From a phage, in the NCBI GenBank assembly GCA_020773975.1, contig GCA_020773975.1_3638.1: a DNA stretch of 64,000 nucleotides; one strand, given 5' to 3'. The notes under the pieces were generated by a model, which was not told where the DNA came from, ran no database searches, and saw only the letters and a program-made list of their open reading frames with translations. A program made the position numbers and the translations under genes. Within the stretch, counting starts at the first letter, position 1, and each line of letters starts with the position of its first letter. Shown in pieces: positions 9,645 to 47,651 of the stretch.

Positions 9645-12056
9645 ATGGTAGTAGATAACCCTCCTGACACCTTGGTCGTACCATCCCCATTTCACCAATT
9701 CCCAATGGAACAGGACTCCCATGAGGTCAAACAATGAAGCACCACCGTTTTGTTGGTAAGCATTCAGCAGAGAATGTTTAGAACGAGTCCAAATTTTACG
9801 CCCGTCCATGCCTGGAATATAGCGTCTCCCATTTGCCTCCCAGAATTTTTCCAACCACTCCCTACGCATTTTCAACCCGAAGTTACTATCCCAGAATGCA
9901 TCTATTACAGCCTGTGCTCTATTAAGGGGGATACCCAGCATTGCGGCTATCTTAGGAGCTTGTGCTCCATACATAATTCCATACGTAACCCCCTTTCCTC
10001 CAGAGCGTGTTACCTCCTTTCCTGCTGCTATTGTGTATGCTCTTGCGTTTCGTTCATGGGCATCCTCTTCCATCATGATACGTAAATACTCACCACCATC
10101 AAACTCAAAAGCCCCTGCCGCTGCAATCATACCTTCTAAGTTAGATCCATCACAACCCATCAGGTAGTAGCCTTCAGGGACTGTCCAAAGACCCCGCATT
10201 TCTTTTCCCAACAAAACCTTCGGATCAGGCTTGGGCATGTTTGCGCAAACAGTATGCTTGCACCTGCCCGTGTTAGTGATTCCAGAAAAACGTGCTGGAA
10301 GTTTTCCGTCAATGTCTAAACGAGGGTGATTTAATAACCCTGTATCCGTCTTATCCTCATCCATTGGGTCTAAAACAGATCGCCTGTTACGAAGTGATAG
10401 CCACTTAACAATCTGTTTTGCCATATGCACATCAATTTTCTCCAAATTTGGACACAGATGCCCAAAATTATCTTTTAATTGAGGAGATGTCGGTAACTGG
10501 CGTGCTTTACGCCGAAATTTCTTAAATATCTCTGAATAACCCCTTTCAGATGCATGGCGATGGTCAAACTTACGCTCTGAAATGTTGAATTTCTCATCTG
10601 AATCATTAAGGTAGTCAAGAATAAGAGATTTATACTCAGACTCTGCCAACTCTTCTATGTACTTCTTAACTAGTACATCAATTTCAGAATCTTCACGAGT
10701 CTTTTTAAATTGATCCTTAGTAACATCTTTTACGCGCCACAGTGTAGGTTTCCAACCAGCATCTTTGATCAAATATTTTTTAATATCATCCTGATTAGAG
10801 ATTTTCATTGGAACCATTAAATCTGGCATTTTTCTGTTTCGAAGGTCTTCTTTAGCCTTCTCTAGAAGATCCGGCGGTAAAGGTTCGAGTGTGTTCTCTT
10901 TGGTTCGCTGGGAACGAATGAAATCACCGTATAAAGCCGGATCTTCAATGCCATTCTGGATGCAATATCTCTCCCCTGCTGCACTTACATCCCCATTGCT
11001 CTTAAAAGCTGTTTTTGGTGGAGCTTTAAACTCCAGAGCTTCCCTGTTAACAGGATAGCCAAGTTTATATTCCAACCAATTCCACCCATGATGAGATATA
11101 TTACCCGCTGTGTCAAAAGGGTTAGCTGGGAATTTTGGTTGTTGAGATTTCGTCATCTCTTTTTTTGGAAGAAGTGGTTCTACCTCTTCTTCAATTTCTC
11201 GCATCATCTTATCTATGCGATCTCTTAATTTTTCTGCCTCCTCCCGATTAAAGTATACGCCTTGTATTTCTTGCTCTATCATCAAATAGTCTGTGAGCAT
11301 TCTCCTACGTAATGCATTTTTCCAATTAATCTGGTGCATCCCGTGAGGTTTATCAGTGTACATAAACTGCTTGTCATCAGGCCATCGCGTACCATTTGAC
11401 TCATCAATAAGAGCTTTCCACACAAGTTCGTTAATGATAACGTCTTCCCACACACGGTTTACATATTCCCACAATGGCTGATTACGCCAATCATCAATCT
11501 GCACTTTCTTGTTTGCTACACGATAACCCCATGCCAATAAGCCGTGTGGCCCAACCCTGTCACGTTTTCCTGTTACAGGGTTCAATACAGAATCTGGGCA
11601 GCCATTAGGCAATGGGCGATCTGGGTAAAGAACACGACTCATTGAAAGAGTGTCGTAAAGATTTACCTGTTTATTACCTATCGTCCCCATACATTTTAGG
11701 TCTTTGAACATGTCATATTCAATCCCAGAAAGTTTTTTCCACAGACGTAAATCATAGCCGAACAGGTTATGTATTGCTATCCCTCTTGGCTCGGTCTGCA
11801 ACCAAGAGTAAAAATCATCATAAGAAAGGATACGTAAATTAACACCTTCTTTGCTGCGTGCAAAATTAACTGCACTCTGGTATTCCTTGTGAGCAGGATC
11901 GAGAAACAACACCCAGTTATTTACAGCATATTCTTTAAAAAGTGTGCAGTGATATTTAGTTGCCTCTTCTAATAATCCGTCAGCTTCGTTATCTCCGACA
12001 AAAAGCCCTTTCATACTCCTCCTATTCAAGATGGGCTTGACTGTATCGTCGCCCAT
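9645..12056 (-). CDS. DNA polymerase, family A (T7 gp5-like), 5' exon
   Basis: N-terminal 3'-5' exo motif LFVGDNEADGLLEEATKYHC (T7 MIVSDIEANALLESVTKFHC as recalled); motif A GCDGSNLEGM; motif B RSGGKGVTYGIMYGA; ORF stops 2 codons after the expected motif-C His. Confidence 0.85.
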
Positions 12057-33024: not shown

Positions 33025-33442
33025 ATTAAAAGTTTTCGACATGTTAGTGGATATTCACTTCCTGTCTCTAGGGTGTGCCATAGATATATCATGGAAGAGT
33101 TGGAACGGTGGTAAATTTATTTTTGGGTCGCTTAGACAAGATACCACAAAATATTTTGTAAGTTGCACAAGGAAATCTCTTGAAATACAGAAATTTTTTG
33201 GGTCTGGTTGGAAAACATTAATTGATCCCAGCATGACACTTGACCCACAAAATATATCAGAGAGTGAAAAACTCTTGGTAAATATTCTCCCAGGACTCAC
33301 AGATTTTGAGAGGGAACTCTACGAAGTGGCTGGGAATGTGGCTAAAATGTGGGCAGATGACCACACACAAGAAACGGATGCAAGGGAGTACGTGAGGAAG
33401 TTTCTCCATAGTCATCTCGATTGGGATACACCAGAAGAGTAA
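33008..33442 (+). CDS. hypothetical protein
   Basis: ORF-track ORF in co-directional array. Confidence 0.45.
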   Translation: MNTQNKLKVFDMLVDIHFLSLGCAIDISWKSWNGGKFIFGSLRQDTTKYFVSCTRKSLEIQKFFGSGWKTLIDPSMTLDPQNISESEKLLVNILPGLTDFERELYEVAGNVAKMWADDHTQETDAREYVRKFLHSHLDWDTPEE

Positions 33443-33479
33443 AATTTAACCACACAGGGAGGCTAACGCACGTAGTCTC

Positions 33480-33535
33480 CCATATGTCCCCATTTCAGGG
33501 ACATGGGTATGTCCCTGTTTTGGGGACACAATACT
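33480..33535. promoter_or_regulatory. cluster of GTCCC/GGGAC palindromes
   Basis: ATGTCCCCATTTCAGGGACATGGGTATGTCCCTGTTTTGGGGACAC: four half-sites forming two palindromes. Confidence 0.45.
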
Positions 33536-33539
33536 AACT

Positions 33540-33740
33540 GATCAAATTAAACTAACTTATAAGATCTATTAAATATAATACTACGTATTATAATACTATG
33601 ATCTATTTAATATAATATATTATACTACGTATAATATAATTTAATATGATCTAATATAATATAATATAAATTATATAATATAATTTAATATAATACTACG
33701 TATTATATATTATAATATATATATTATATAAAATTTATTT
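33540..33740. repeat. AT-rich iteron region (candidate origin of replication)
   Basis: About 200 bp of roughly 90 percent A+T with three copies of GATCTA(T)TTAATATAATA and three copies of ACTACGTAT. Confidence 0.6.
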
Positions 33741-33750
33741 AAAATACACT

Positions 33751-33895
33751 AAGTCTTGAAGAATGTCAAGACTTGATTTTAAATATTTTTGTTGATATGA
33801 TTCGATTGAGTCGAATCGTATGGTTCGATGATTTCGAATCATAGAGTTCATAGTGTTTTGCCTGAAAGTGTGAGTCGATGAGACTCTTCAGGCAA
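33751..33895. promoter_or_regulatory. series of perfect palindromes/hairpins
   Basis: AAGTCTTGA-AGAATG-TCAAGACTT (33751-33774), GATTCGA-TTGAG-TCGAATC, TTCGAATC repeats, GCCTGAA...GAGTC-GATGA-GACTC...TTCAGGC. Confidence 0.5.
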
Positions 33896-34183
33896 TACGT
33901 GAGTGTGTAAGATGCTCACTGCGCTGATAGCTTGTGACCATCTAACCCTCATGAGCCATTCTGAGATAAACCCACATCAACAAACCCTACAGGTTTGTCT
34001 CTGTGTGTTGATCTCAATCATGGATTCGGGTTGTCACAGGTCACTATGTGACTCTGTGTGTGGGGGATTTTGAATGTGTACCGGAGCATGGCGCACAGGA
34101 CTGGTTCATCTGTCTGTCTCAACTGGGGCGCGGCGGGTGTCAAGGTTTAGTTTTACGTTTGTTTGGGTGTGGAGGAGAGTTTT

Positions 34184-36262: not shown

Positions 36263-37087
36263 ATGACAAGTATTTTACACACGACAGGTATTTTACCACA
36301 CTATCAGAAGGACTATTCTTTCCCTGATTTCTCTGGGGATATGTTGCAAATATACGACAAAGTGCAAGGCGAAGTGTCGGAGCTACAGTTTAGTTCAGAC
36401 CCTGATGATGAGCAAGAGTTTGATAAACAGATTTGTCGTGTAGAAAACGAGCTTATAGAGCTACAATCATTAGCCAAATCAACAGATATCGAAGACTTAA
36501 GGCGATACGTCGAGAATCTTGAAAATTTAGTGTTCGGGCTTTCGCAAGCTATTATAAACATTGGTGAAATTGCTAAAATTGCCTCTGACAAGTTGCCAGA
36601 CAACGCAGAAGATATTGAAGAAGCGTTGCAGAATATCTGCTATGAAGGAAGTTCTGCTCTCGGTTGTGAATGTAATCTAGGAAATGCTCTTGAAGAACGT
36701 GGGTGGAGCCTAGCCCAAAAAACTTTTGTTTATCTTGTTATTGGTGGTGAGTTCCCACGACTTTTACAACTTAATGCCCTTTTTGGAAACAGTCAGAGCG
36801 ATAATATTGCATTAGGTATTGATGGTTGGTTCTGCTTAAGAGGTAAAGAATTAACATTTTGTCGTGGCGATGATGTGTTAATTCTCAATGCTTCTAAACC
36901 TGGTGTTGGAATAACAGTAAGACTTAATGGTAAGTCCACTAATTTCCACACCACAGAATTGACAGATATTTTTATGGACATATTCGATCCTACAGAAGAC
37001 GAAATTCTTATGTATGAAATGACCAGTGGAAAAAGGTATGATATTTTGTTGTGGAGAAATATTTTCGGTAAGAAGAAAAGTTTATAG
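36263..37087 (+). CDS. hypothetical protein
   Basis: 274-aa acidic ORF. Confidence 0.5.
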   Translation: MTSILHTTGILPHYQKDYSFPDFSGDMLQIYDKVQGEVSELQFSSDPDDEQEFDKQICRVENELIELQSLAKSTDIEDLRRYVENLENLVFGLSQAIINIGEIAKIASDKLPDNAEDIEEALQNICYEGSSALGCECNLGNALEERGWSLAQKTFVYLVIGGEFPRLLQLNALFGNSQSDNIALGIDGWFCLRGKELTFCRGDDVLILNASKPGVGITVRLNGKSTNFHTTELTDIFMDIFDPTEDEILMYEMTSGKRYDILLWRNIFGKKKSL

Positions 37088-37114
37088 TATGATATTTTAT
37101 CGCTGATATTTGTT

Positions 37115-37142
37115 TTCCCTGTGATATTTTTGTCACAGGGAA
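37115..37142 (+). other. perfect 10-bp hairpin
   Basis: TTCCCTGTGA-TATTTTTG-TCACAGGGAA directly after the preceding stop; no U-tract. Confidence 0.4.
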
Positions 37143-37359
37143 AGTTTCAACAACAGATATTTTCTTGATACTTTAAAACTCTACCAGAATTTAAAATTCT
37201 GTAAATTTAGAAAACTATTACTTATAAGCGTTTCGACACAATTTTGTTATGAAAGCCTTGTTTTTATATAAAAACCTGTTTTAGCATGAGTGGTAGGATC
37301 ACACTCCATACTACCTTTATTCCTACAGATGAGCACCTCCATGTCCGAAAACTCGGTTC

Positions 37360-37560
37360 TCGATCGAAAATTCATTTTCCAGATCGTATTTGCTCCTTAC
37401 GGAGAAAATTTTTTAGGGCTACAAATTTCAGTTCTCGATCAGTTTTTCGATTTCAAAATCGTATTTGTTTTTTCTTGCGAAAAATTTCGCACGCTCAGTT
37501 CTCGATCGAGTTTTCAAAATCGAAATCGTATTTGCTCTATAGCGCGAAAAAATTTTTATG
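37360..37560. repeat. three imperfect direct repeats of about 65 bp (GTTCTCGATC ... ATCGTATTTG ... GMGAAAAATTTTT)
   Basis: GTTCTCGATC begins at 37366, 37431 and 37498; each unit also contains ATCGTATTTG and an A-run/T-run; a fourth diverged copy is at 45983. Confidence 0.6.
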
Positions 37561-37909
37561 GGTATCATAATTCTATCACACACTTAAACGCAAAGCAACA
37601 TAAAAATTTTTGTTGAATGATAATCATTCTTATTTGCATAATGACAGGCAGGAGCGGTGTCTTATCCTCCCCCGTTGACCATCGTCGCCGTAGTTTGAAG
37701 TTTATAGCCGTTCTCGGCTTATATCTTTGTTAGATATAGATTAGCATAATTGATAAAGAAAGCAAGTTTTAGGCATAATCTTTACGTTTCTTTACAAATT
37801 TATTTTTGACGAGTTACCGGCGATCGACCTTCCAACCAGCGCCCTGATATGTTAGCCCCGCCTTTACGCCGTGGGGATGGCGTTTCCTCTTCTGTATGTG
37901 AAACATTAT

Positions 37910-37932
37910 AAGCCCGACCCCCGGGCTTGTCA
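37910..37932 (-). terminator. hairpin downstream of the minus-strand HTH gene
   Basis: AAGCCCG-GGGGT-CGGGCTT on the minus strand followed by a partly T-rich tract. Confidence 0.4.
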
Positions 37933-37939
37933 AACATTT

Positions 37940-38206
37940 TTATTGTTTATTTTCTTGCCAGGTTAGGACACCTAGCCAGAAATGGCAATCACCTTTCGCC
38001 CATTGTGGTATATTGCTTTCTTTCCCACCTTCCCGCGCCCAGGAATAACCGCCCGTGTAACTTTGCAATTGATAACTATCCTCGACCTTATAATCTGACA
38101 GGCTGAGAACTGTTTCTACCTTTAAGCCCGTTGCGCTCGCTACCTGGTGGATAGTTCCCCCTTGCCAGCCTAACGCGTGCATAAGGTGCAATGTGGTAGT
38201 GGTCAT
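37940..38206 (-). CDS. small HTH-containing protein, candidate transcriptional regulator
   Basis: 88 aa; GGTIHQVASATGLKVETVLSL resembles a helix-turn-helix; GAGGAA SD 9 nt upstream of ATG; the only minus-strand gene inside the plus block, divergent from the small-ORF cassette. Confidence 0.45.
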   Translation of the reverse strand: MTTTTLHLMHALGWQGGTIHQVASATGLKVETVLSLSDYKVEDSYQLQSYTGGYSWAREGGKESNIPQWAKGDCHFWLGVLTWQENKQ

Positions 38207-38235
38207 TTTTTCTATTCCTCTGTTAGTTGGCTAGT

Positions 38236-38285
38236 TGTTAAAATTATATCTATAACCAGCCAGGTTAGCAAGGCAAATAAAAGAG
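38236..38285 (-). promoter_or_regulatory. putative sigma70 promoter for the HTH gene
   Basis: Minus strand TTGCTA-17 nt-TATAAT. Confidence 0.4.
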
Positions 38286-38340
38286 AAAAATTTTTTAAAA
38301 ATAGTATTGACAGCGGGGGTAGTATAGATCTACTATGTGC
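38286..38340 (+). promoter_or_regulatory. sigma70-like promoter with AT-rich UP element (copy 1 of a duplicated 27-bp module)
   Basis: AAAAATTTTTTAAAAATAGTATTGACA (38286-38312), then TACTAT at 38331-38336 (18-nt spacer). Confidence 0.5.
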
Positions 38341-38391
38341 ACATCAAGGCGATACACCGCCACCAACCAACCTAAAAAGGGGTGAATTAAT

Positions 38392-38739
38392 ATGAAAACC
38401 ATCGTTAACGCTGAGAATGTATCTTTTGATAAGTTGAGCGACGCACAAAAAGAAAAAGCCATTGATCTTATTCGTGAGCGTGAAAGAGAAAGTAATAATG
38501 ATTTCTTTGCTGATAGTGTCATTGAAGACTATAAGAATGACATTTTGCCAGAGTACGGGATCGATGACGCGGTTATCTATTGGTCAGGATTCTGGTCGCA
38601 AGGCGACGGCGCATCAATCAGCACTGACCGCGTGGATATTGAAAAATTTTTAAGAAAAGTTAAATCTTTAACAAAATTCAGAGGGATCCGCAAACTATTT
38701 GATATTGATGAAGATGGAAAAGTTTACGCTATCGCTTAA
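38392..38739 (+). CDS. hypothetical protein
   Basis: AGGGGTGA SD; 115 aa acidic. Confidence 0.55.
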   Translation: MKTIVNAENVSFDKLSDAQKEKAIDLIRERERESNNDFFADSVIEDYKNDILPEYGIDDAVIYWSGFWSQGDGASISTDRVDIEKFLRKVKSLTKFRGIRKLFDIDEDGKVYAIA

Positions 38740-38779
38740 AAGTGCTTGCATTCAGTTTTAAAATAGGAGGTAAATAAAA

Positions 38780-39136
38780 ATGGCAATCAAGGCAATCATG
38801 TTAGAACTTACAGACTTCCGTAATACTGTAAAAAATTTAACCAAAAAACAGGTTGATAATATTATCAACGGATACCGTAGCAAGATTAAAGATCTTCCGC
38901 TTAAACGCGATCAACATGCGGCTAATATGATGCTTGACGCTATGATCAAAAAGATGATTCAGTGCGATCTTACTCTGGCTTATGAATACGCTGGCGATCT
39001 CTTTGTAACGTATAATAAGCCAGTGCCAGGCATGTGCACCACGGAAGAATTGCACGCCCTGAATCTAAAACAAGATGCATGGGATAATATGCGCCGCGTT
39101 ATGGTGTGGGCAGAAAGCGGTAAAATTTATCAATAA
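38780..39136 (+). CDS. hypothetical protein
   Basis: AGGAGGT SD. Confidence 0.55.
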   Translation: MAIKAIMLELTDFRNTVKNLTKKQVDNIINGYRSKIKDLPLKRDQHAANMMLDAMIKKMIQCDLTLAYEYAGDLFVTYNKPVPGMCTTEELHALNLKQDAWDNMRRVMVWAESGKIYQ

Positions 39137-39142
39137 AGATAG

Positions 39143-39189
39143 TTGTCTTTTAGTTATGCCGTGGTAGAATACACGGCATAGATAAGAGA
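39143..39189 (+). promoter_or_regulatory. promoter-palindrome module (type B, copy 1)
   Basis: -35 TTGTCT (39143-39148), 16-nt spacer, -10 TAGAAT (39165-39170); inverted repeat TATGCCGTG (39155-39163) / CACGGCATA (39172-39180) brackets the -10; followed by GATAAGAGA. Confidence 0.5.
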
Positions 39190-39212
39190 AACTACTTATC
39201 AGAGTTTAAAAG

Positions 39213-39431
39213 ATGAAAAATATTACGGGTAAAACCGAGCTATTAAAGGCGCTTTCTGTCGGTGAGTCAGCTTTATGGGTATGTGAAAAAGATCGCCTAC
39301 CGTCGCGTGAGATGGCCTTGTTTAAGGCTTTATCTTTGAAGCTGAAAATTAAATTATCCCAAAAATTAGCGGTTGTTGCCGCACCTGGGGAAACTGCTTT
39401 CAGTATCGTAATGGTTAAAAGGTTGGAGTAG
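39213..39431 (+). CDS. hypothetical protein
   Basis: 72-aa ORF downstream of the promoter module. Confidence 0.45.
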   Translation: MKNITGKTELLKALSVGESALWVCEKDRLPSREMALFKALSLKLKIKLSQKLAVVAAPGETAFSIVMVKRLE

Positions 39432-39449
39432 AAAAAATTAAAAATTATA

Positions 39450-39478
39450 TTGACAAGCAAAACAGCAAAAATTAAACT
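39450..39478 (+). promoter_or_regulatory. sigma70-like promoter
   Basis: TTGACA-17 nt-TAAACT with an A-rich upstream tract. Confidence 0.4.
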
Positions 39479-39516
39479 TACACACAGTTAAATAAACAAT
39501 ATTAACGAGGTAAATC

Positions 39517-39888
39517 ATGAAACAGTTAACCGCTTCCCAAAAAGCAATGATCCGTGAGTATGTTTTAAACTCTCTTTCTTTCGATATTGAATCGGGTAGC
39601 GAGCAAGAGCAGATCAAAGAATTAAAAAACCGATTTGAATCTGAATACTGGTACGATAGCAACAAGAAACGCTATCAAAATGATAAAGTACAAGGCCTCA
39701 AAAATTGGTTGCAAGGCTTGCCGAGTGGTGTTAATATCGATTTCACTTATTACGATATTGAGCAACGCCTTAAAGATCTTGGAATCATTACCGAGACGAC
39801 CAGAGAAAGCACTATTGAAAAATATATATCTGAGTGGTGGGATCTGGTAGCGCCGTTTTATGCTGGGCTAATCGTCAACTTAAAATAA
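39517..39888 (+). CDS. hypothetical protein
   Basis: GAGG SD; 123 aa. Confidence 0.55.
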   Translation: MKQLTASQKAMIREYVLNSLSFDIESGSEQEQIKELKNRFESEYWYDSNKKRYQNDKVQGLKNWLQGLPSGVNIDFTYYDIEQRLKDLGIITETTRESTIEKYISEWWDLVAPFYAGLIVNLK

Positions 39889-39923
39889 TTATTGCAAACT
39901 ATCTAAAACTGGTTTAAATTAAA

Positions 39924-39945
39924 GGGAGTGAGTTTAATCACTCCC
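39924..39945 (+). other. perfect 8-bp hairpin upstream of the next start codon
   Basis: GGGAGTGA-GTTTAA-TCACTCCC; the ORF-track GTG start at 39928 lies inside it. Confidence 0.45.
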
Positions 39946-39966
39946 AACATGAAAGAGGTTAATCAA

Positions 39967-40278
39967 ATGAATACTTATTTTTCTACTCGTTCACTTGCAC
40001 GCATTGCAGCGAAAGAAACAGGCGGTAAAGTTTTAGATAATGGCAAAGATGCGCCGATCGGTAAACGTTGGCAAGTTATCCCTGGCTATGTTATTGAAGC
40101 CGTCCAGGATACAGCAAAACAACGCGCTGAGATGGAAAATAAACCAGTAGTCACCTTGTCCATTGGTAAGCGTAGCAATGTAGCGAATCAAGCCCGTAAG
40201 GCGCTTTATTACGCCATCAATTACGCAAGAAATAATAAAACTGTTCCGCTTTATCATAAGCGTTCATTTAAGAAATAA
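39967..40278 (+). CDS. hypothetical protein
   Basis: ATG at 39967 preceded by AAGAGG. Confidence 0.5.
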   Translation: MNTYFSTRSLARIAAKETGGKVLDNGKDAPIGKRWQVIPGYVIEAVQDTAKQRAEMENKPVVTLSIGKRSNVANQARKALYYAINYARNNKTVPLYHKRSFKK

Positions 40279-40347
40279 TTTTTAATTAGATAAAAAGCGC
40301 CCTAAGAAATGGGCGCTAAACAAAAACACTTAAAGAGGTAAATTATT

Positions 40348-40698
40348 ATGGCTAGCATTGTAGAAATTTTCAAAAAAGCTGTTGAAAATAAAAACGCTGA
40401 GTTGTCTTTAACGTCTTTGAATTTTACTGATGCTTACGGTAATACTTATTTTGTTTATGAGCTTGGTTTTACTTGTCCTGAGTTAAAAACATGGGAAACG
40501 TTGCATAAATCTCGCGATCTGCAATATGGATATGGTGATCACGTTTTAACTGTTGCAATGAAAGACCTTTCAACTATTACCGGGGTAAAATCTGAGGCCG
40601 CATATATTACCCGTTGGGCGCATGACAACGGCTTAAAAATTAGTGTCAACAAGCGCACCAATTGCCGGAAAAAAGATTTAAAACAGTTTATCGCTTGA
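40348..40698 (+). CDS. hypothetical protein
   Basis: AAGAGG SD; preceded by hairpin AGCGCCC...GGGCGCT. Confidence 0.55.
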
Positions 40699-40723
40699 TC
40701 CTGTTAATCATCTTGGTGGTTGT

Positions 40724-41074
40724 ATGATCCAGTTTTATATAATCATCGCGGCGCTTGCAATTTACTTAGGATTGCACCAAAAAGTATTCAGGGTAATTCT
40801 TTGGTTTTATTACGAGTACAGGATCAGAATGGGTTATCACTATATCGAATACTCTTTCCACGGCGAGAGATACCACACAAGGAGATCCGGCCCATTAAAT
40901 GATCTTGAGGGAAACGGTTTAATCTGTGAGGTCAAAAAGCGGGGCGGGAAAATTCTTTACCACAAAGAGGGCACTTTTGATTATATTGATGAGGTGATTA
41001 ATTTTAGGCAACAAGCCGTAAAAGATCACGCCAGCAAAATAATCAACGGCAGCTATAAACGCAAAGCGGGGTAA
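40724..41074 (+). CDS. membrane-anchored hypothetical protein
   Basis: N-terminal TM (FYIIIAALAIYLGL). Confidence 0.5.
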   Translation: MIQFYIIIAALAIYLGLHQKVFRVILWFYYEYRIRMGYHYIEYSFHGERYHTRRSGPLNDLEGNGLICEVKKRGGKILYHKEGTFDYIDEVINFRQQAVKDHASKIINGSYKRKAG

Positions 41075-41075
41075 T

Positions 41076-41258
41076 ATGCGGAATTTTGAAAAAATTGTTA
41101 AAGCTAATCGCCTGGAATACGGGGAAACAGACGAAAAACGGGAACGGGTAGGCAAACGCCATAAACCTAAAAAGGTTCCTAAATTGTGGTGTCCTGATAA
41201 ATACGATCACAAATTAAAACAGCGTATCGCTGAGAAACAGCGATTAAACGCAAGATAA
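41076..41258 (+). CDS. small basic hypothetical protein
   Basis: 60 aa, Lys/Arg-rich. Confidence 0.4.
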   Translation: MRNFEKIVKANRLEYGETDEKRERVGKRHKPKKVPKLWCPDKYDHKLKQRIAEKQRLNAR

Positions 41259-41264
41259 CAGACA

Positions 41265-41290
41265 AGGCCGGAACTATCCGGCCTTTTTAA
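41265..41290 (+). terminator. rho-independent terminator
   Basis: AGGCCGGA-ACTA-TCCGGCCT followed by TTTTTAA. Confidence 0.7.
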
Positions 41291-41371
41291 TGCCTGGTGG
41301 CGTTCAGAACGATTAAAACTATTAAAGATGGTCCGATGTACCACAAAATAAAATAGCTCGTTAGAGAGTGT

Positions 41372-41394
41372 TTTAGAGGCCTTAAAATCGATCC
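41372..41394 (+). promoter_or_regulatory. conserved 23-nt motif (copy 1) downstream of a terminator
   Basis: TTTAGAGGCCTTAAAATCGATCC; second copy TTTAGGCCGCTTAAAATCGATCC at 44842-44864. Confidence 0.45.
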
Positions 41395-41415
41395 TAAAAA
41401 TATCTATAAAAATGC

Positions 41416-41444
41416 TTGCAATGCTTTCCCGCTATCGTTATAGT
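41416..41444 (+). promoter_or_regulatory. sigma70-like promoter
   Basis: TTGCAA-17 nt-TATAGT. Confidence 0.45.
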
Positions 41445-41653
41445 GTTCCCAACAAGCAAGCAAACGAGGTTAACGGCAATGATTGAGATTCTTAAAAATC
41501 CTATTTTGTGTGGTATGGTTGTTTCTGTGTCACTTCCGATCGTGCTGTTAGTCGTTAGCGAAATAGATGATTTTATCTTTAATAAAAGACTTGCCAACAA
41601 GTCAAAAACAAATTAATATAGTATCAGCATACTAACTAGCGAGGTGATTTAAT

Positions 41654-41872
41654 ATGTTTGGTTTTATTGTTCTATCTTGTTCTCTTCCTGTCACTGCTGC
41701 AAAGGTAGAATGTAACTACACTGTAAAAGAGACTTTTAATGATGAAAAGTCTTGCAATGTATACGAAAATAATTATAAACTAGGAGACGGGGAGCAGTTC
41801 GGGATCTGTGATGAATTAAAGGACGGTATGAAGAAAGGCGATAAGCGCCCGATCCTGGTCCTGAAAAAATAA
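41654..41872 (+). CDS. small secreted protein
   Basis: Signal peptide-like MFGFIVLSCSLPVTAAK; GAGGTGA SD. Confidence 0.5.
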   Translation: MFGFIVLSCSLPVTAAKVECNYTVKETFNDEKSCNVYENNYKLGDGEQFGICDELKDGMKKGDKRPILVLKK

Positions 41873-41913
41873 TTTTTCTAATCATGTTGATCAATTCTTA
41901 AGAGGTGAATAAA

Positions 41914-42201
41914 ATGTTTGAAGTTTTCGCGGGTATGTGTTTTTATACAGCTTTGGCAGTTCGCCAATGTGATGATTATATCGTTGAATCATACGATGAT
42001 CAGTTGACTTGCGAAATAGTCGCTAATGACTACGGCAAAAAAGATCGCTGGATTAATCCGGCTTGCATACCATCCCCAGAGGTAGAAGCCATGCCGGAAG
42101 GGGAAGAGGTATCAAATCCAGTTGTAGCAGTATCCTCCTTTTTCGTTGACAACCTGGACGCCCAAGAATTGATCAACATGTATGTAAAAAATCAAAAATA
42201 A
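41914..42201 (+). CDS. hypothetical protein
   Basis: ATG at 41914 preceded by AAGAGGTGA; the ORF-track start at 41905 is GTG. Confidence 0.5.
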   Translation: MFEVFAGMCFYTALAVRQCDDYIVESYDDQLTCEIVANDYGKKDRWINPACIPSPEVEAMPEGEEVSNPVVAVSSFFVDNLDAQELINMYVKNQK

Positions 42202-42204
42202 CGC

Positions 42205-42240
42205 TTGACGTTGATTTGTGCCACCTTATAATAGGTGGCA
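42205..42240 (+). promoter_or_regulatory. promoter-palindrome module (type C)
   Basis: -35 TTGACG (42205-42210), -10 TATAAT (42227-42232) sitting exactly between the arms TGCCACCT (42219-42226) and AGGTGGCA (42233-42240). Confidence 0.5.
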
Positions 42241-42291
42241 TAGGTAAGCGAAAGCGGATCTAAGTCTTAAACAAGGTAAGAGAGGTAAATC

Positions 42292-42612
42292 ATGGAACAA
42301 GCTAATAAATTTTTCTTCCTGGCTGGGATCGTGGATAATGTGAAATGTGATTTCAAGCGTGAAAATGATAAGACGTTACTCACTTTCTGCGATATGCTTG
42401 ATCATGAGAATGCCGACAAGTTACGAATCGAGATCCGCACGATAACCAATATCGACAATTCAAGCCGTTTAATTTATAAATCTCATTCGATAGCTTACAG
42501 CTTGGAAACATCAACAAGCTGCATACAACAAGGTGAGAGCTTGCCCATTCTAAATAGTGCCGATGTATTTGGCGCGGTTGTTGCAATTGTAAATGATGTT
42601 TTTTCTCGTTGA
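42292..42612 (+). CDS. hypothetical protein
   Basis: AGAGAGG SD. Confidence 0.5.
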   Translation: MEQANKFFFLAGIVDNVKCDFKRENDKTLLTFCDMLDHENADKLRIEIRTITNIDNSSRLIYKSHSIAYSLETSTSCIQQGESLPILNSADVFGAVVAIVNDVFSR

Positions 42613-42729
42613 TTGGTGTTAATATTATGTTAGAGAATATCGTGTTTTGGTGTGGTGTCGTTATCGCTGTTATGGTTGGCATCCTGGCGACGATGGCGAA
42701 CATTGTGATCTCAAACAACCTGGCAGGGT

Positions 42730-42778
42730 AAAAATTTTTTAAAAATAGTATTGACATACTGGCGGCATATGGTATCAT
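42730..42778 (+). promoter_or_regulatory. sigma70-like promoter with AT-rich UP element (copy 2 of the duplicated 27-bp module)
   Basis: AAAAATTTTTTAAAAATAGTATTGACA (42730-42756), identical to 38286-38312, then TATCAT. Confidence 0.5.
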
Positions 42779-42910
42779 TTACCACATGAAGGGGCGAGAT
42801 TGACTTGCCTCACTAACGAAAGGTAAATAATGATGAACATTTCTAAAACTACTTTTAACTTTGCTAAAAAGCGTGGAATTTAGCTTGAGCTAGTCGAAGC
42901 AGATGATCGC

Positions 42911-43099
42911 TTGCTCCTGGCTTTTTATGAAGCTAAAAACGAATGTGAGTGGATGTTCTCTTATAATGTTAATCATGATTGCCTAACCTGGCGCGGAAAT
43001 ATCTATCTTTCAAACGAAGTGAAAGAGGAATTACCCGCCACGATCACGACTGAGAAAAAACTACGTGAGGTTATTGACTTCATCTCTAAAAGTATCTAA
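42911..43099 (+). CDS. hypothetical protein
   Basis: 62-aa ORF. Confidence 0.4.
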   Translation: MLLAFYEAKNECEWMFSYNVNHDCLTWRGNIYLSNEVKEELPATITTEKKLREVIDFISKSI

Positions 43100-43145
43100 G
43101 ATTACAGGGAAAGGGGCAAAAGCCCCCTACCGCAGAAGGTATAAA

Positions 43146-43370
43146 ATGGATAAATTAACAAAGATTGAACATGAAGTTATGGATCTTGCAAGGGCTAATA
43201 GGCCATTTGACAAGATTTTCTCTAAGGAGAATAAAGAGATCTTGAAAGATCTAACGCAAGGTCAAAAAGACGGCTTGCGCCGCTTATATCGTGAGGCGTA
43301 TGACTATTTTCGCTGGTGGGAAATAGAAGAGGCTAACGCGAAAATAGAAGGCCTAGAAAATTTAGTATAA
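43146..43370 (+). CDS. hypothetical protein
   Basis: ATG at 43146 preceded by GAAGGT; the ORF-track ORF 43065-43370 starts further upstream. Confidence 0.45.
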   Translation: MDKLTKIEHEVMDLARANRPFDKIFSKENKEILKDLTQGQKDGLRRLYREAYDYFRWWEIEEANAKIEGLENLV

Positions 43371-43376
43371 AAGTAG

Positions 43377-43423
43377 TTGACTTTTACTTATGCCGTGATA
43401 GAATGCACGGCATAGATAAGAGA
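43377..43423 (+). promoter_or_regulatory. promoter-palindrome module (type B, copy 2)
   Basis: -35 TTGACT (43377-43382), 16-nt spacer, -10 TAGAAT (43399-43404); arms TATGCCGTG (43389-43397) / CACGGCATA (43406-43414); followed by GATAAGAGA as in copy 1. Confidence 0.5.
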
Positions 43424-43465
43424 GACGGCACAAGCCATTGATTAAACTTAAAGAGGTAAATTATC

Positions 43466-43867
43466 ATGAATACTTACAAAACTGTTTTTAATTTCGACAA
43501 CTTCAAAGCTATCTGTGACGATCAGATCGGTAAGTGCCGTAAAGAAAAAGGATTCTATAAATCTTATAAATTGATTGCGGTTGTTGATGAAGAGATCACC
43601 GAAGTGGCAACGCTCAACCTGTACCACACCAACGCTACTAATTACGCTTGCCTGTGGATGCACTGGACCAATATTAAAGGTTGGGATCATGGCTATGTTG
43701 GCGGGAAAGCAAGCGGATACGGTTACGACAGGGAGGAGGCCGCGATCCATGTCGTAGCTAATAAGCTCGGTATTACTGGCAACTGGTTTAAAGGTGAGCA
43801 ATTGCTAGATGCGATGGCACGCCATTTTGATATGAAAGGCGCAAAGGTTATAACTTGCAACGCGTGA
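43466..43867 (+). CDS. hypothetical protein
   Basis: AAGAGG SD; 133 aa. Confidence 0.55.
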   Translation: MNTYKTVFNFDNFKAICDDQIGKCRKEKGFYKSYKLIAVVDEEITEVATLNLYHTNATNYACLWMHWTNIKGWDHGYVGGKASGYGYDREEAAIHVVANKLGITGNWFKGEQLLDAMARHFDMKGAKVITCNA

Positions 43868-43914
43868 TCATTCAATAGCGGGGAATATTCCCCGCTTATA
43901 GATAGGGCATAATC

Positions 43915-44166
43915 ATGATTTACGATCTTAAATATTACGACGAATTGAGCATTACAGCACAATTAACCGCCCGTGTCAATATTATAGCAGACCTTGAGAA
44001 TCACCACAGAAAGCGCATAGTCCAGACTATCGCAAGTTTTAAAAATAATCCTCATAAAGTGATTAATGACACGAAGCACATTCAACGCCTCAGAAACGGC
44101 GCAAAGGCGCTTTATAGTGTACAAGTTTTAACGAGATCGCCCCGCGTTTTGACTGGTCGAGCTTAA
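43915..44166 (+). CDS. hypothetical protein
   Basis: 83-aa ORF. Confidence 0.45.
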   Translation: MIYDLKYYDELSITAQLTARVNIIADLENHHRKRIVQTIASFKNNPHKVINDTKHIQRLRNGAKALYSVQVLTRSPRVLTGRA

Positions 44167-44241
44167 AAACAATAGTTTAAAATTAATTTAGTTATTGATA
44201 AAATCTTATATAAAACTTTAATCTAAAAGGGGTGAATTAAT

Positions 44242-44442
44242 ATGAAACGTTTTACCTATGGTGTTGTTGGTGGTTATGTTTCAAACCGGTTTTACAATAC
44301 CGAGCGTGGTGCTAAAAATGCGGCTACCCGTGGATATGGCAATAGTGCAAATTTACAAGTTGGCTACATTAGCAAAATTAGCGGTATGTTTATTCCGGTT
44401 GCTCAACGCGGCATGTATTGCATAAACTGGATGCCAATGTAA
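44242..44442 (+). CDS. hypothetical protein
   Basis: AAGGGGTGA SD. Confidence 0.45.
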   Translation: MKRFTYGVVGGYVSNRFYNTERGAKNAATRGYGNSANLQVGYISKISGMFIPVAQRGMYCINWMPM

Positions 44443-44457
44443 AAAGGAGTAATAAAA

Positions 44458-44649
44458 ATGGATGTATCACAAGTTAGAAAGGTATTAGCAGCGTTACGCT
44501 ATCACAATTATAGCAAGGTGAAGAATGATCCTGATTATGTTGATTCCAGCTTGGAGGAAGACACCTTGCAAGCTATAAGCCATATGCAGGAATTGCTTAA
44601 GCGTATGACAGAGAAGAACAGATCTGATTATATAGGTGAAGAGATTTAA
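44458..44649 (+). CDS. hypothetical protein
   Basis: AAGGAG SD; last ORF of the cassette. Confidence 0.45.
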   Translation: MDVSQVRKVLAALRYHNYSKVKNDPDYVDSSLEEDTLQAISHMQELLKRMTEKNRSDYIGEEI

Positions 44650-44682
44650 TCTCTTACAACCGCACAAAGTAAAATTGTACAA

Positions 44683-44709
44683 GGGGCGCATTAAGCGCCC
44701 TTTATTTTT
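44683..44709 (+). terminator. rho-independent terminator closing the small-ORF cassette
   Basis: GGGCGC-ATTAA-GCGCCC followed by TTTATTTTT. Confidence 0.7.
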
Positions 44710-44911
44710 GCCCTAACAAGCATGATAAGTTTTATCTATCAAAACACCACACAGAAAAAAGTGAATAAAACGCGGTATCGAGCTAAACGAGGGTAGGCAG
44801 TACAACGGCAAGGGTAAACAATTAAGGCCGTTATAACGCGATTTAGGCCGCTTAAAATCGATCCCCATCACGAACAACCCCCATAATCTGACCAAAACGA
44901 CACAACATGAC

Positions 44912-45000
44912 TTAAATGATAACCATTCTCAACAACATAAGAATTTTTATGCAATTTTAGTGAATATCTATTTAAATGATAATGACTCTCAACAACAAAA
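44912..45000. repeat. two direct repeats of about 29 bp
   Basis: TTAAATGATAACCATTCTCAACAACATAA (44912-44940) and TTTAAATGATAATGACTCTCAACAACAAAA (44971-45000). Confidence 0.55.
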
Positions 45001-45092
45001 TAACACGACCGAAGCGATTTAATCGCCTATCACAAAACAAATCAATTGTAAAGAACAATTTAAAAGCTGCGTAAGTGGCGCGACCGTAGGGA

Positions 45093-45320
45093 GCGACACA
45101 ATAACGCAGTAGTAACCCCTCCCCCTCACTCCTTACAGTCGCCCGGTATCGGGATAGCGTTATTATGTCGCTACGCGCCAACGCGTTAACAATTTTGCAA
45201 AGAAGCCTGCTTTGCAGGTTAAGCGCATTGCGCTTAATCGCGTAGCGACTATGTGAAATTATAACAGTTAAATTATTAATAAAATCTTGCAAAATTGTTA
45301 ACCTACTGCGTTATTGTGTC
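45093..45320. repeat. nested inverted-repeat element (18-bp perfect terminal inverted repeats around about 190 bp)
   Basis: GACACAATAACGCAGTAG (45095-45112) is the exact reverse complement of CTACTGCGTTATTGTGTC (45303-45320); inside, GTCGCTACGCG / CGCGTAGCGAC plus the palindromes ACGCGT, GTTAAC, CCTGC...GCAGG, AAGCGCATTGCGCTT. Confidence 0.6.
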
Positions 45321-45433
45321 CTGTATATAATTCGTTAAATTAACCAAATTAATCCCCGATTATTACGCAGTAAATCACCTGCTTTTAACCCTGTTAATGT
45401 GCCACGTAGTGATCTGCTATCTTGCCCAGGGAT

Positions 45434-45452
45434 AACCGCATGGCATGCGGTT
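45434..45452. repeat. perfect 9-bp-arm palindrome
   Basis: AACCGCATG-G-CATGCGGTT. Confidence 0.55.
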
Positions 45453-45530
45453 AAATGCTGTTAAGTGCTTGAAATGCCAGATCAATTTGGTCACTGCGTG
45501 ATTATGATTGCGACAATAATTTGCTATTTA

Positions 45531-45560
45531 TTTGTTATAATTTGTTATAATTTGTTAAAC
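45531..45560. repeat. tandem 10-mer repeat (3 copies)
   Basis: TTTGTTATAA TTTGTTATAA TTTGTTAAAC. Confidence 0.6.
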
Positions 45561-45659
45561 ACTCTTTTATCTTTTCTCTTACATTTTCGTTATATTTGAT
45601 TTGTTATCGTTTTCCCTCATTTCGCTTCGTTATTGAAAACAAGAATTATTATCATTGAT

Positions 45660-45960
45660 ACGCCTTAACAGGCTGGCGGGTCTGTTAGTGGTCTGGCTCT
45701 CTGTGTGGTCATGTTGTTATTGGTTGTGATAGCTTGGTTTTATTGTCTGGCCTGTTATTGTTAGCTTGCTTATTGTTGTGTGGTGTATGTATTAGTTAGC
45801 TAGTACATTAGCTGGTGCGCATAACGTGTATTATGTTAAATCAGGTGGCCCACAAGTAAGGTGGCTTGTCAATAACAATAAGTGCTATGTGCGGTAGTCT
45901 GGCCCATCAGTGTGCCCCTTTGTTGTGTGGTGCTCTCAGTGTGTGACCTGTCTGCTGTGT
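45660..45960 (+). other. strand-biased G+T-rich non-coding tract
   Basis: Top strand almost devoid of A and C runs; recurring TGTGTGG/CTCTGTGTGG; ends with a diverged fourth copy of the GTTCTCGATC repeat at 45983. Confidence 0.5.
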
Positions 45961-46190
45961 GCGCTGCGCCAAATCTCGAGCGGTTCTCGATCACAATAGC
46001 TGTAGGATATTTTCAAAACATCCGAATTTCCATCGACACCCCCAGCTCATCTGCCTGTCACCTCTGAGATAAAGCTGTAGATATTTTCACTCCTCACATC
46101 ATGCACAAGTTAATACATGCAAGTCTTTACAGACAGGGGTGGGTGGTGTAAAATACCTGTGCCAACAGTACAAAACACAGAGGAGGTTTA

Positions 46191-47651
46191 GTGGCAAAAC
46201 AGTTCTTTGACAAACATTACATGGAAACGCATTTTGTAGAGAAACCTCTGCATCGCCTGAACTTTACAGATTTAGAAGGAATGAGGTTTGGCAAGATAAC
46301 GGTGCACAAACTTAACAGAAGAGAGGATAAGTCTTTTGTGTGGTGGTGTACGTGTGATTGTAACCCATCCAGATATTTTATGGTTGTGCCTTACTCACTT
46401 AAAACAGGGGTGACAACATCTTGTGGTTGCAATTATAAAACTAATGGAGGGAATATACATGAAACACTCCAAGAGTTTCAAAAGAAAGTTGGTGGTGATT
46501 GGGAGATTATCTCATACCAAGGTAGAAAGCACGATTGTGTTGCCAAATGTACTATGTGTGGGAGTATTGTCACCAAACAAGGTGGCTCATTTATCTGCGG
46601 TGTGACGTGCCATTGCACTGATAAAAGAATAAAGAGGCGTGATGATATTTTGCATCTTGCGGGGTACAGTCTGATCAAAGAAGAGAAAGTTCAACAGCAG
46701 AATGGTGAATATATAATGCACTTGCGCTGTAAATCTTGTGGTGTTAAGAAACTGACGCGAAACACGGAGTTAAGGGATTTAAAGCCATGCCTGTGTAGAG
46801 GCGACCACACCAACAATGGGAAACCTTGCGCCATTTACCTGCTTTCACATAAAGATGGTAAGTATTGTAAGATTGGTAGGTCTTATAGCCCCTCCTCAAG
46901 ATTACGTATGATTAATGGTTCTGGTGGCGACTTTATATTGGAGCATGTTTGGTGGACACCTAACTATCACTACGCATCTGTGCTGGAGACAACACTCCAC
47001 AGGGAATTTTCTGAGCATCGCTTTGACGCTGGTGGTTTCGATGGGAGCACAGAGTGTTTCTACATAAAGCCTGACAAATTGGCAAAAGGAATATCTGAGA
47101 TAGTCGCCAAGTTGGTTGGGGATTACAAACCTGAAGATGGGGTGTTGACAAAAGATGTGAAGATAAGGAATAACTACAAGAACAGCGGTATGATTGTGAA
47201 GTCTAGGAGTTATCACTTCAAAGAGTCAGATGTGTGTTTGTGGATACCTTATAAAGGGTATCTCAGAAAGAAGAGATCCCCATTCTCCTCTTGGGAGATG
47301 GCAGAAGAGTGTCACTATTTAGCTGCAAATGTGCAGCCTTCCAAAAACTTAGATAGGTTTAAAATTTATGATGTGGATGGGGTTACTGACTCCATAGCAG
47401 GTTGGTCAAGGAGAACTGGAATCCCTGCTCAGACACTTACGTGGAGAATGCAACGCACAGGCATGACAATGAAAGAGGCGATTAATTATTGCAGACCAGA
47501 CACTGTTATTTGGTGTGGCGGGAAAATGGTTAAGAAGAGAGATCTTAAAAGCATTATCGGTGTTTCTTGGGAGTCGGTTTATACAGCATCCAGAAAAAGC
47601 AAGAAGTCCCCAGAACATATTATAGAAGAAATACTGAAAAGGGCCACTTAA
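46191..47651 (+). CDS. T5orf172 (GIY-YIG superfamily)-like protein with N-terminal Cys-rich Zn-finger repeats and C-terminal HTH-like module
   Basis: GTG start 4 nt after AGGAGG; core AIYLLSHKDGKYCKIGRSYSPSSRLRMING ... EHVWW ... ETTLHREF ... GSTECFYI; several CxxC/CxC clusters upstream; C-terminal GVTDSIAGWSRRTGIPAQTLTWRMQRTGMTMKEAI. Confidence 0.55.
   Translation: MAKQFFDKHYMETHFVEKPLHRLNFTDLEGMRFGKITVHKLNRREDKSFVWWCTCDCNPSRYFMVVPYSLKTGVTTSCGCNYKTNGGNIHETLQEFQKKVGGDWEIISYQGRKHDCVAKCTMCGSIVTKQGGSFICGVTCHCTDKRIKRRDDILHLAGYSLIKEEKVQQQNGEYIMHLRCKSCGVKKLTRNTELRDLKPCLCRGDHTNNGKPCAIYLLSHKDGKYCKIGRSYSPSSRLRMINGSGGDFILEHVWWTPNYHYASVLETTLHREFSEHRFDAGGFDGSTECFYIKPDKLAKGISEIVAKLVGDYKPEDGVLTKDVKIRNNYKNSGMIVKSRSYHFKESDVCLWIPYKGYLRKKRSPFSSWEMAEECHYLAANVQPSKNLDRFKIYDVDGVTDSIAGWSRRTGIPAQTLTWRMQRTGMTMKEAINYCRPDTVIWCGGKMVKKRDLKSIIGVSWESVYTASRKSKKSPEHIIEEILKRAT

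Follow-up and report, generated by a model that had tools for sequence, protein, structure and literature searches.

Predicted promoters within covarying hairpins in an accessory-gene cassette of an rV5-like phage

A cassette of small genes with predicted promoters inside hairpins

We analysed a 64-kb stretch of phage DNA (contig GCA_020773975.1_3638.1 of GenBank assembly GCA_020773975.1; hereafter the window), in which an earlier note, written from the sequence alone, had described an early-type cassette of small genes at 38236-44709. This region shares ~94% identity over 98% of its length with Escherichia phages vB_EcoM_TH18, 18-1-2 and Av-05 and, judged by its sequence, the source is an Avunavirus-like member of the Vequintavirinae, that is, an rV5-like E. 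coli phage. The cassette comprises 19 plus-strand genes of 34-133 aa between 38392 and 44649. Here we describe a module found in three of its intergenic gaps (B1, C and B2), in which a σ70-type promoter lies inside a long hairpin. The earlier note had reported duplicated σ70-type promoter modules with UP-like AT tracts, in motif families A, B and C, within a cassette bounded by terminators. All of this was borne out, including the motif sequences and coordinates, and the repeats were absent from the shuffled sequence with which motif counts were compared.

There are exactly two copies of the pattern TATGCCGTG-N8-CACGGCATA, at 39155-39180 and at 43389-43414, against 0 in shuffles. Both copies lie in an 81-nt direct repeat, 79% identical, which begins ~25 nt within the upstream genes. 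Their promoters read TTGTCT (B1) or TTGACT (B2), a 16-nt spacer and TAGAAT with a TG extended -10. In module B1 (39137-39200, plus strand) the -35 is at 39143-39148, the -10 at 39165-39170 and the inner arms at 39155-39163 and 39172-39180; in module B2 (43371-43434, plus strand) the corresponding elements are at 43377-43382, 43399-43404, 43389-43397 and 43406-43414. Folding of each intergenic gap revealed a longer hairpin, of which the 9-bp arms form just the core. The downstream motif GATAAGAGA provides the 3' side of an outer helix, and its partner, TCTTTTA, lies just after the -35; in B1, TCTTTTA at 39146-39152 pairs with TAAGAGA at 39183-39189. In a third helix of B1, the TT of the -35 and its 5' neighbours pair with AAAC at ~+15. 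A covariance model of the module (R1) scores B1 at 78.1 bits and B2 at 69.9 bits, and the predicted folding energy of B1 is -25.3 kcal/mol (z = -8.5).

Module C (42199-42262, plus strand) contains TGCCACCT-TATAAT-AGGTGGCA at 42219-42240, which occurs once and was not seen in shuffled sequence. Its -35, TTGACG, is at 42205-42210, and its -10 at 42227-42232 is exactly the loop between arms at 42219-42226 and 42233-42240. These arms extend to 13 pairs, including three G.U, and are followed outwards by the helices CGTT/AGCG and CGCTT/AAGCG. The R1 score is 74.4 bits, and the predicted energy is -29.4 kcal/mol on the plus strand versus -18.9 on the minus strand. Because C has the same three helices as B in the same register, families B and C, both real but described as separate, form one homologous module family.

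Thus, the whole promoter, from the -35 to ~+20, lies within an interrupted hairpin of ~24 pairs (~58 nt) that carries the σ70 -10 hexamer in a loop of 6-8 nt. The three helices are stacked, with 5, 6-7 and 11-13 pairs amounting to about two helical turns of double-stranded RNA, and all three covary. Predicted energies range from -20 to -30 kcal/mol and z-scores from -4.2 to -8.5. The promoter itself consists of an AT-rich tract, an upstream stop codon just 5' of the -35, a 16-nt spacer (16-18 nt across the family), a -10 of the form TAnnnT and a conserved CATAG-like motif at the predicted start, the A of CATAG (~39178 in B1, 42240 in C and 43412 in B2). In the module alignment the -35 TTGNC is invariant and the loop keeps the -10 consensus, suggesting that the promoter reading is under selection as well. 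No T run follows the stem in any module; T runs are present at the terminators at 41264-41290 and 44681-44709. No Rfam 15 covariance model matched 37000-46300 at E ≤ 1.

Covariation and distribution of the modules

Using BLAST with the short modules against GenBank phages, we found copies in SSBI34 (Salmonella), PcCB7V (Pectobacterium), ChuuTotoro (Serratia) and CR3 (Cronobacter), all Vequintavirinae, and in the Stephanstirmvirinae phages KP13-26 and FBKp34 (Klebsiella), ASO2A (E. coli) and Tr1 (Citrobacter). Copies in TH18 and Av-05, also Vequintavirinae, align with modules B and C too. Pattern scans of IMG/VR for the module returned only Av-05 itself and unrelated GC-rich palindromes. All of the relatives' copies keep TTGNC, the -10 consensus in the loop and the CATAG-like motif; their arms vary yet stay complementary, with pairs ATGCCGTG/CACGGCAT, GTGCCACC/GGTGGCAT, ATAGCGCC/GGCGCTAT, ATGTGGGG/CCCCACAT and AATGGCTGT/ACAGCCATT. 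The arms differ even within one genome: SSBI34 alone carries ATGCCGCT, ATGCCGCC, ATGCCTGGTA and ATGTGGGG, and KP13-26 alone carries ATGCCGTGC, ATAGCGTCC and AATGGCTGT. The covariance model also found copies outside its training set with quite different arms (ATGTGGGG/CCCCACAT, AATGGCTGT/ACAGCCATT and GTCCCGCT/AGCGGGAC).

Across 13 aligned sequences, 85.6% of cells in the 24-pair structure pair, against 39.7-45.2% when partners are slid, and both sides change in 11 of the 24 pairs. The covariation score was 0.358, compared with 0.025-0.093 for slid partners; it was reached by 0 of 500 shuffles, a significance inflated by the relatedness of the aligned sequences, for which the slid-partner control is the fairer comparison. 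RNAalifold, given 24 sequences, independently recovered the same fold, with compensatory changes at 11 of 18 pairs. At closer range, module C of the window and that of TH18, in a region ~94% identical, differ by one compensatory double change from G-C to A-T. On this comparative evidence, base pairing of the module arms is under selection.

The pairing also has a direction. A U.G pair (19-49) stands at the foot of the inner stem in every one of the 13 sequences, and pair 14-54 is U.G in seven and U-A in six. In 12 of the 13, the plus strand is predicted to fold more stably than the minus strand, by ~6 kcal/mol overall and typically by 5-10 kcal/mol. The U.G pairs and the strand asymmetry together point to a sense-strand RNA rather than a symmetric duplex site or a cruciform.

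The covariance model identified exactly 3 copies in the 64-kb window. The complete SSBI34 genome (141 kb) has 7, all intergenic, on the gene strand and within 7.3 kb at a small-ORF (open reading frame) cassette, with none elsewhere in the 141 kb, including the replication and structural regions. Each of these seven begins at the upstream stop codon and ends shortly before the next start, and in both the window and SSBI34 all copies are co-oriented with the genes. In some comparisons of relatives, module edges coincide with mosaic breakpoints: PcCB7V has module-gene-module where CR3 has a single chimaeric module, homology between ASO2A and Tr1 ends exactly at a module 3' edge, and the DNA homology that the window's second cassette gene shares with phi92-like phages goes no farther than the stop codon of this gene, the point at which B1 starts. 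For the module 5' of the ORF16 family, nucleotide identity across subfamilies is 77-86%, against 39-43% for the protein. Independently, the module has been annotated as 'promoter' in the GenBank record of FBKp34 and as 'rho-independent terminator' in that of ASO2A.

Genes, other promoters and surroundings of the cassette

The 19 genes lie on the plus strand at 38392-38739, 38780-39136, 39213-39431, 39517-39888 and 39967-40278 (ORFs 1-5); 40348-40698, 40724-41074, 41076-41258, 41479-41616 and 41654-41872 (ORFs 6-10); 41914-42201, 42292-42612, 42627-42731, 42830-43099, with an amber codon at 42881, and 43146-43370 (ORFs 11-15); and 43466-43867, 43915-44166 (truncated), 44242-44442 and 44458-44649 (ORFs 16-19). 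All 19 match PHROG families of unknown function (E 1e-5 to 1e-59), and we therefore regard every one as a real gene. The earlier note had listed about 20 ORFs of 60-130 aa, each with its own strong Shine-Dalgarno sequence; the plus-strand run stands at the count and sizes given above, and a clear Shine-Dalgarno (GAGG, GGAG or AAGG) precedes ~14 of the 19, that of ORFs 3, 7, 8, 13 and 17 being weak. It is often part of a repeated unit, AGAGGTAAAT-N-ATG, and a 23-nt repeat spanning the Shine-Dalgarno and the start is identical at 44225-44247 and 38375-38397.

The description of these genes as small accessory genes of unknown function held up. Pfam gave one credible match among the 19 proteins, ORF8 (41076-41258) to Phage_1_1, the family of T7 early protein 1.1, with 27.9 bits where the cut-off is 21. 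A TPK_B1_binding match (24.1 bits, cut-off 22) is probably spurious, and a match to Unstab_antitox was sub-threshold (17.3 bits against 23.3). Beyond these three, Pfam and PHROGs returned only families of unknown function for all 19 proteins. The genes beneath the matched region in TH18 and Av-05 are likewise all annotated as hypothetical.

Against the sequences of TH18 and Av-05, ORF1 lacks ~260 bp through an in-frame deletion, ORF14 has a GAG-to-TAG nonsense change at 42881, and ORF17 is truncated where three genes have been lost; gene 119, with its promoters, and gene 141 are also missing, and in all five TH18 genes are absent from the cassette. The sites of loss or damage are 38690-38770, 42881, 44122-44162 and 44650-44660. 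Such decay fits dispensable accessory genes, as far as comparison with these relatives indicates. Four indel junctions between the window and TH18 are each a deletion between short imperfect direct repeats, and recombination in the style of promoter-early stem-loops (PeSLs), considered as the cause of these differences, was rejected at all four. The DNA of ORF2 and ORF19 (38897-39137 and 44444-44659) is 87-92% identical to that of many distant phi92-like and phAPEC8-like phages, with unrelated DNA on either side, a pattern that looks like the outcome of recent horizontal exchange in which individual gene cassettes moved. The same DNA also matches records labelled as Enterococcus and Campylobacter phage, which are probably contaminated or mislabelled.

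Besides the modules, the cassette contains a second class of promoter. The 27-nt block A, AAAAATTTTTTAAAAATAGTATTGACA, occurs exactly twice, at 38286 and 42730, with 0 matches in 100 shuffles. Promoter A1 (38286-38336, plus strand) has this AT-rich UP-like block, TTGACA at 38307-38312 and a -10, TACTAT, at 38331-38336; CACAT and a small hairpin, GGCG/CGCC, lie downstream. Promoter A2 (42730-42811, plus strand) shares the UP/-35 block and has an extended -10, TGgTATCAT, at 42773-42778 within an imperfect dyad, CATATGGTA/TACCACATG (42766-42788), followed by CACATG and a hairpin at 42791-42811 that covaries among the window, TH18 and Av-05. In phi92 and JEP1, almost all gaps of the equivalent cassettes have the order stop codon, TTGACA, 16 nt, TAnnnT, CACATAG, GC hairpin, Shine-Dalgarno and ATG, and A1 and A2 fall in this class. 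GC hairpins that lack T tracts stand beside promoters in nearly every phi92 and JEP1 gap and in other gaps of the window's cassette.

Further plus-strand elements lie in other gaps. At 38746-38766 a degraded half-module retains only the -35 (TTGCAT) and spacer, fused to the Shine-Dalgarno of the next gene; in TH18 this place is taken by a complete promoter, gene 119 and another promoter. A plain σ70-like promoter without a hairpin (TTGACA-17-TAAACT, AT-rich tract upstream) is at 39450-39478. At 39892-39945 a weak promoter-like site (TTGCAA-17-TTAAAT) runs directly into the hairpin GGGAGTGA/TCACTCCC (39924-39945), with no T tract. Intergenic hairpins lie at 40296-40317 (AGCGCCC/GGGCGCT, without a plus-strand T tract), 43113-43126 (GGGGC/GCCCC) and 43877-43896 (AGCGGGGA/TCCCCGCT, no T tract). 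The first sub-operon ends at the intrinsic terminator at 41264-41290, a 9-bp GC-rich stem followed by TTTTT, and a promoter-like site at 41416-41444 (TTGCAA-17-TATAGT) would restart the cassette. At 44176-44247 an AT-rich promoter-like region leads into the Shine-Dalgarno-plus-start repeat, and the intrinsic terminator at 44681-44709 closes the cassette. A generic promoter scan of the region gave 40 sites against 27.6 ± 6.3 expected, a mild enrichment; the promoter evidence rests on the repeated, conserved modules rather than on this count.

On the minus strand, a gene for an 88-aa protein (37940-38206), with its own promoter-like site at 38271->38243, diverges from the cassette (37940-38271 overall). 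As the earlier note stated, the gene exists and is divergent, and it is also conserved; the helix-turn-helix assigned to its product was not detected. The protein, of unknown function, has 35 homologues with conserved WQGGT.HQ and FWLGV motifs and a predicted fold of five helices (pLDDT 95.3). A conserved small divergent gene adjoins the cassette in the window, phi92 and SSBI34. A HigA-like protein, also proposed, was found neither in the cassette, where the sub-threshold Unstab_antitox match comes nearest, nor in the scanned flanking genes, the window's other genes not having been scanned. Pfam identified a DUF2201 metallopeptidase/VWA protein and a T5orf172 protein among the larger flanking genes.

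Other features were noted around the cassette. A minus-strand promoter at 37933->37905, a perfect σ70 consensus (TTGACA-17-TATAAT) whose spacer is a hairpin (AAGCCCG/CGGGCTT), faces ~800 nt of ORF-free DNA (37100-37935) that is conserved in nucleotide sequence in phi92. We regard 37100-37935 (minus strand) as a candidate non-coding RNA; it had no Rfam match at E ≤ 1. Within it, 37352-37556 holds three tandem copies, 67-75% identical, of a unit of ~63-75 nt. TTAAATGATAAyCATTCTCA repeats flank the cassette on both sides, at 37613-37644, 44912-44943 and 44972-45003, and the phi92 non-coding region has similar GATAATCATTCTCA repeats. Together, the tandem and dispersed repeats look like iteron-like or protein-binding arrays. 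Beyond the closing terminator, 44710-46190 is ORF-free and contains perfect inverted repeats (45095-45112/45303-45320 and 45185-45200/45287-45302); segments 45201-45252 and 45256-45302 are inverted relative to TH18, which suggests an invertible or rearranging segment. Just past this non-coding region, a 486-aa ORF at 46191-47651 (plus strand) has T5orf172/MUG113 domains of a GIY-YIG-like family and is possibly a mobile or homing-type gene.

Farther away, 33440-34180 is ORF-free, with dense AT-rich direct and inverted repeats, especially at 33573-33740 (TATAATACTACGTATTATA units), and is possibly an origin or packaging-related region. A group I catalytic intron at 9379-9654 (minus strand; RF00028, 81.2 bits, full-length model) adjoins or overlaps an 805-aa ORF at 9639-12056 and is the only match in the window at Rfam's gathering threshold. 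Many intron-associated homing endonucleases are known from related phages such as CB7. A tRNA gene was not detected anywhere in the 64-kb window.

Interpretation and comparison with known systems

The cassette is probably a hyperplastic accessory-gene block that is read early by the host σ70 RNA polymerase from serial internal promoters; the equivalent Certrevirus region, with the same kind of promoter, has been described as a likely early region (PMC7344957). The earlier note had argued that a transcript from a B or C promoter starts in the right arm and cannot itself form the hairpin. That is correct, but the conclusion drawn from it, that the palindromes must act at the DNA level, overlooks transcripts that would start at promoters farther upstream in the operon and read through the modules. 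The stretches from A1 to B1, from the 41416 promoter to C and from A2 to B2 are all free of intrinsic terminators, so such read-through RNA would hold the whole hairpin.

We consider it fairly probable that each module is a promoter inside a sense-RNA hairpin that acts on read-through transcripts, a composite element resembling the PeSLs of T4-like phages. The module would then be dual-coded: as DNA it is a promoter, and the same ~58 nt, transcribed from an upstream promoter, would form a long hairpin serving as a transcript-boundary element. This hairpin may act by attenuating or terminating transcription that arrives from upstream, by protecting the 3' end of the preceding message, or in both ways. 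Every promoter-gene unit would thereby be insulated, with the embedded promoter restarting transcription. The module is conserved while the surrounding genes turn over, and on that basis it could double as a homology patch for gene gain, loss and swap. Promoter activity, start sites, hairpin formation in vivo and the effect on RNA are all inferred here from sequence.

Several points weigh against this explanation, in addition to the relatedness of the aligned sequences. The invariant U.G could arise merely because the spacer T and the G of CATAG are themselves constrained, and would then say nothing about RNA. Having no U tract, the modules are not canonical intrinsic terminators, and their conserved length of ~24 pairs exceeds the needs of termination and would fit RNase III processing equally well or better. 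The four indels relative to TH18 use short unrelated repeats, not module-to-module exchange, one leaving the -35-only remnant at 38746-38766. We also found no literature on start-site data or hairpin promoters in Vequintavirinae.

The strongest alternative, which we hold to be possible although rather unlikely, is RNase III-type processing, in which cleavage at the ~24-pair helix would divide the polycistronic early RNA and leave the upstream message with a stabilising stem at its 3' end. The three stacked covarying helices of about two double-stranded RNA turns, the lack of a U tract and z-scores down to -8.5 all favour it. In T7 early RNA, RNase III cuts at long interrupted hairpins between small early genes, some of them beside promoters and none with U tracts, and this processing insulates and stabilises the messages. 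The modules resemble these sites in each of these structural respects; T7 sites, however, are not wrapped around host-type promoters. Moreover, RNase III sites are not reliably predictable from sequence, and PeSLs, the only experimental precedent for promoter-embedded stem-loops, gave a terminator-like loss of downstream expression.

Less probable still is a DNA-level recombination device, in which the modules, perhaps as single-stranded DNA hairpins during replication, would be portable linkers that promote template switching or homologous exchange and thereby carry promoter-gene cassettes from phage to phage, with any RNA effect secondary. The modules do lie at mosaic breakpoints, are duplicated within a genome and are more conserved across subfamilies than neighbouring genes, and crossovers in PeSLs were mapped in the loop and mini-circles detected (PMC2839356). 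Against this, selection for evolvability is weak relative to tight covariation over 24 pairs, the four indels relative to TH18 did not use the modules, and homology alone would suffice without a hairpin. We give even less credence to a dual element that displays the -10 (UAUAAU) single-stranded on a duplex stalk as multicopy regulatory RNAs from read-through transcription, either titrating σ70 holoenzyme as an open-promoter mimic in the manner of 6S RNA or timing early shut-off as a substrate of a phage or host RNase, with the cassette also moving genes between the two subfamilies.

The two DNA-level readings of the earlier note fare worst. An operator through which a dimeric regulator, the 88-aa protein or another, shuts early promoters by covering the -10 is very unlikely. 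As in a lambda-type operator/repressor switch, a dyad overlies the promoter, where repressors act, the outer half-sites TATGCC/GGCATA recur in most copies, and the conserved small divergent gene is near. However, the arms are not conserved in sequence between copies, even within SSBI34 or KP13-26, and change by compensation that preserves complementarity; the pairing, over 24 positions, takes in the -35 and +10 to +20, which an operator would not require; the G.U pairs and strand asymmetry misfit a symmetric duplex site; and the divergent protein lacks a detectable helix-turn-helix. A DNA hairpin or cruciform promoter, whether N4-like with a phage polymerase or a supercoil-sensing σ70 promoter silenced by extrusion, is just as improbable. 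The early promoters of N4 have a 5-7 bp stem and a 3-nt loop and are recognised in their extruded DNA form by a giant virion RNA polymerase, and engineered palindromic promoters can be silenced by cruciform extrusion. The modules share with N4 an inverted repeat at the promoter core, their perfect 8-13 bp inner arms bracketing the -10, but their 6-8 nt loops and G.T-containing outer helices disfavour extrusion, the loop is a σ70 -10 with a consensus -35 16-18 nt upstream, the folding asymmetry is unexpected where both strands must fold, and no phage polymerase is known in the group, Certrevirus relatives being reported without an RNA polymerase gene (PMC7344957).

The promoters themselves have been described before. 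The σ70-like early promoter of Certrevirus reads AAAA(N3-4)TGTTGAC(N17-19)TATAAT (Buttimer et al. 2020, PMC7344957), and 33 σ70 promoters were predicted in rV5 (PMC3606486). These belong to the same subfamily, share the UP-like tract and are concentrated among short hypothetical ORFs taken as early, and the CR3 and PcCB7V copies of the module are among these promoters. Both papers give promoters only, with no mention of a stem-loop, hairpin or PeSL (PMC7344957, PMC3606486). The modules reveal neither a new regulator nor a new kind of promoter. Dual coding would explain why one sequence was auto-annotated as a promoter in one genome and as a terminator in another. The covariance model marks the accessory early regions of these phages, and the modules indicate where therapeutic phages of the rV5-like and phi92-like groups can naturally be cut for engineering and could supply compact, strong promoter/insulator parts for E. 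coli.

The closest parallel to a promoter within a sense-RNA hairpin is the PeSL, known from the T4-like phages RB49/phi1, T4/PST and KVP40/nt-1 (Arbiol et al. 2010, PMC2839356; Comeau et al. 2014, PMC4122927). PeSLs flank ORFans, mediate indels, sometimes leaving half elements, and often have a stem-loop that overlaps the -10 or sits between the boxes (PMC2839356, PMC4122927); they cut downstream reporter expression like a strong terminator (PMC2839356). Like PeSLs, the modules are short cassettes in the gaps that separate small ORFan genes of hyperplastic regions, with an upstream stop codon in an AT-rich tract, σ70-like -35 and -10 boxes, a stable stem-loop, a Shine-Dalgarno and an ATG. They too occur in many clustered copies per genome (3 in the window, 7 in SSBI34), and a half element adjoins a deletion at 38746-38766. 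Indel or replacement boundaries between close relatives fall at modules for PcCB7V versus CR3 and for ASO2A versus Tr1, but not for the four deletions that separate the window from TH18. In contrast to PeSLs, they belong to Vequintavirinae and Stephanstirmvirinae rather than T4-like phages, and their TATGCC...GGCATA-type stems have no sequence similarity to those of PeSLs (Gn-loop-Cn, A3-4G3-loop-C3T3-4 and AGNA-loop-TCNT). They also have one fixed architecture, with -35 to +20 in a covarying ~24-pair hairpin, the -10 in the loop and the start at CATAG. Promoter and terminator activity and mini-circles were shown experimentally for PeSLs, whereas the module is known here from its sequence alone. 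On this comparison the module is an analogue of the PeSL and not a homologue. It carries the PeSL idea beyond T4-like phages into two further large groups of myoviruses that infect enterobacteria, and adds to the original PeSL work clear covariation evidence that the stem is selected, together with a signature pointing to sense-strand RNA.

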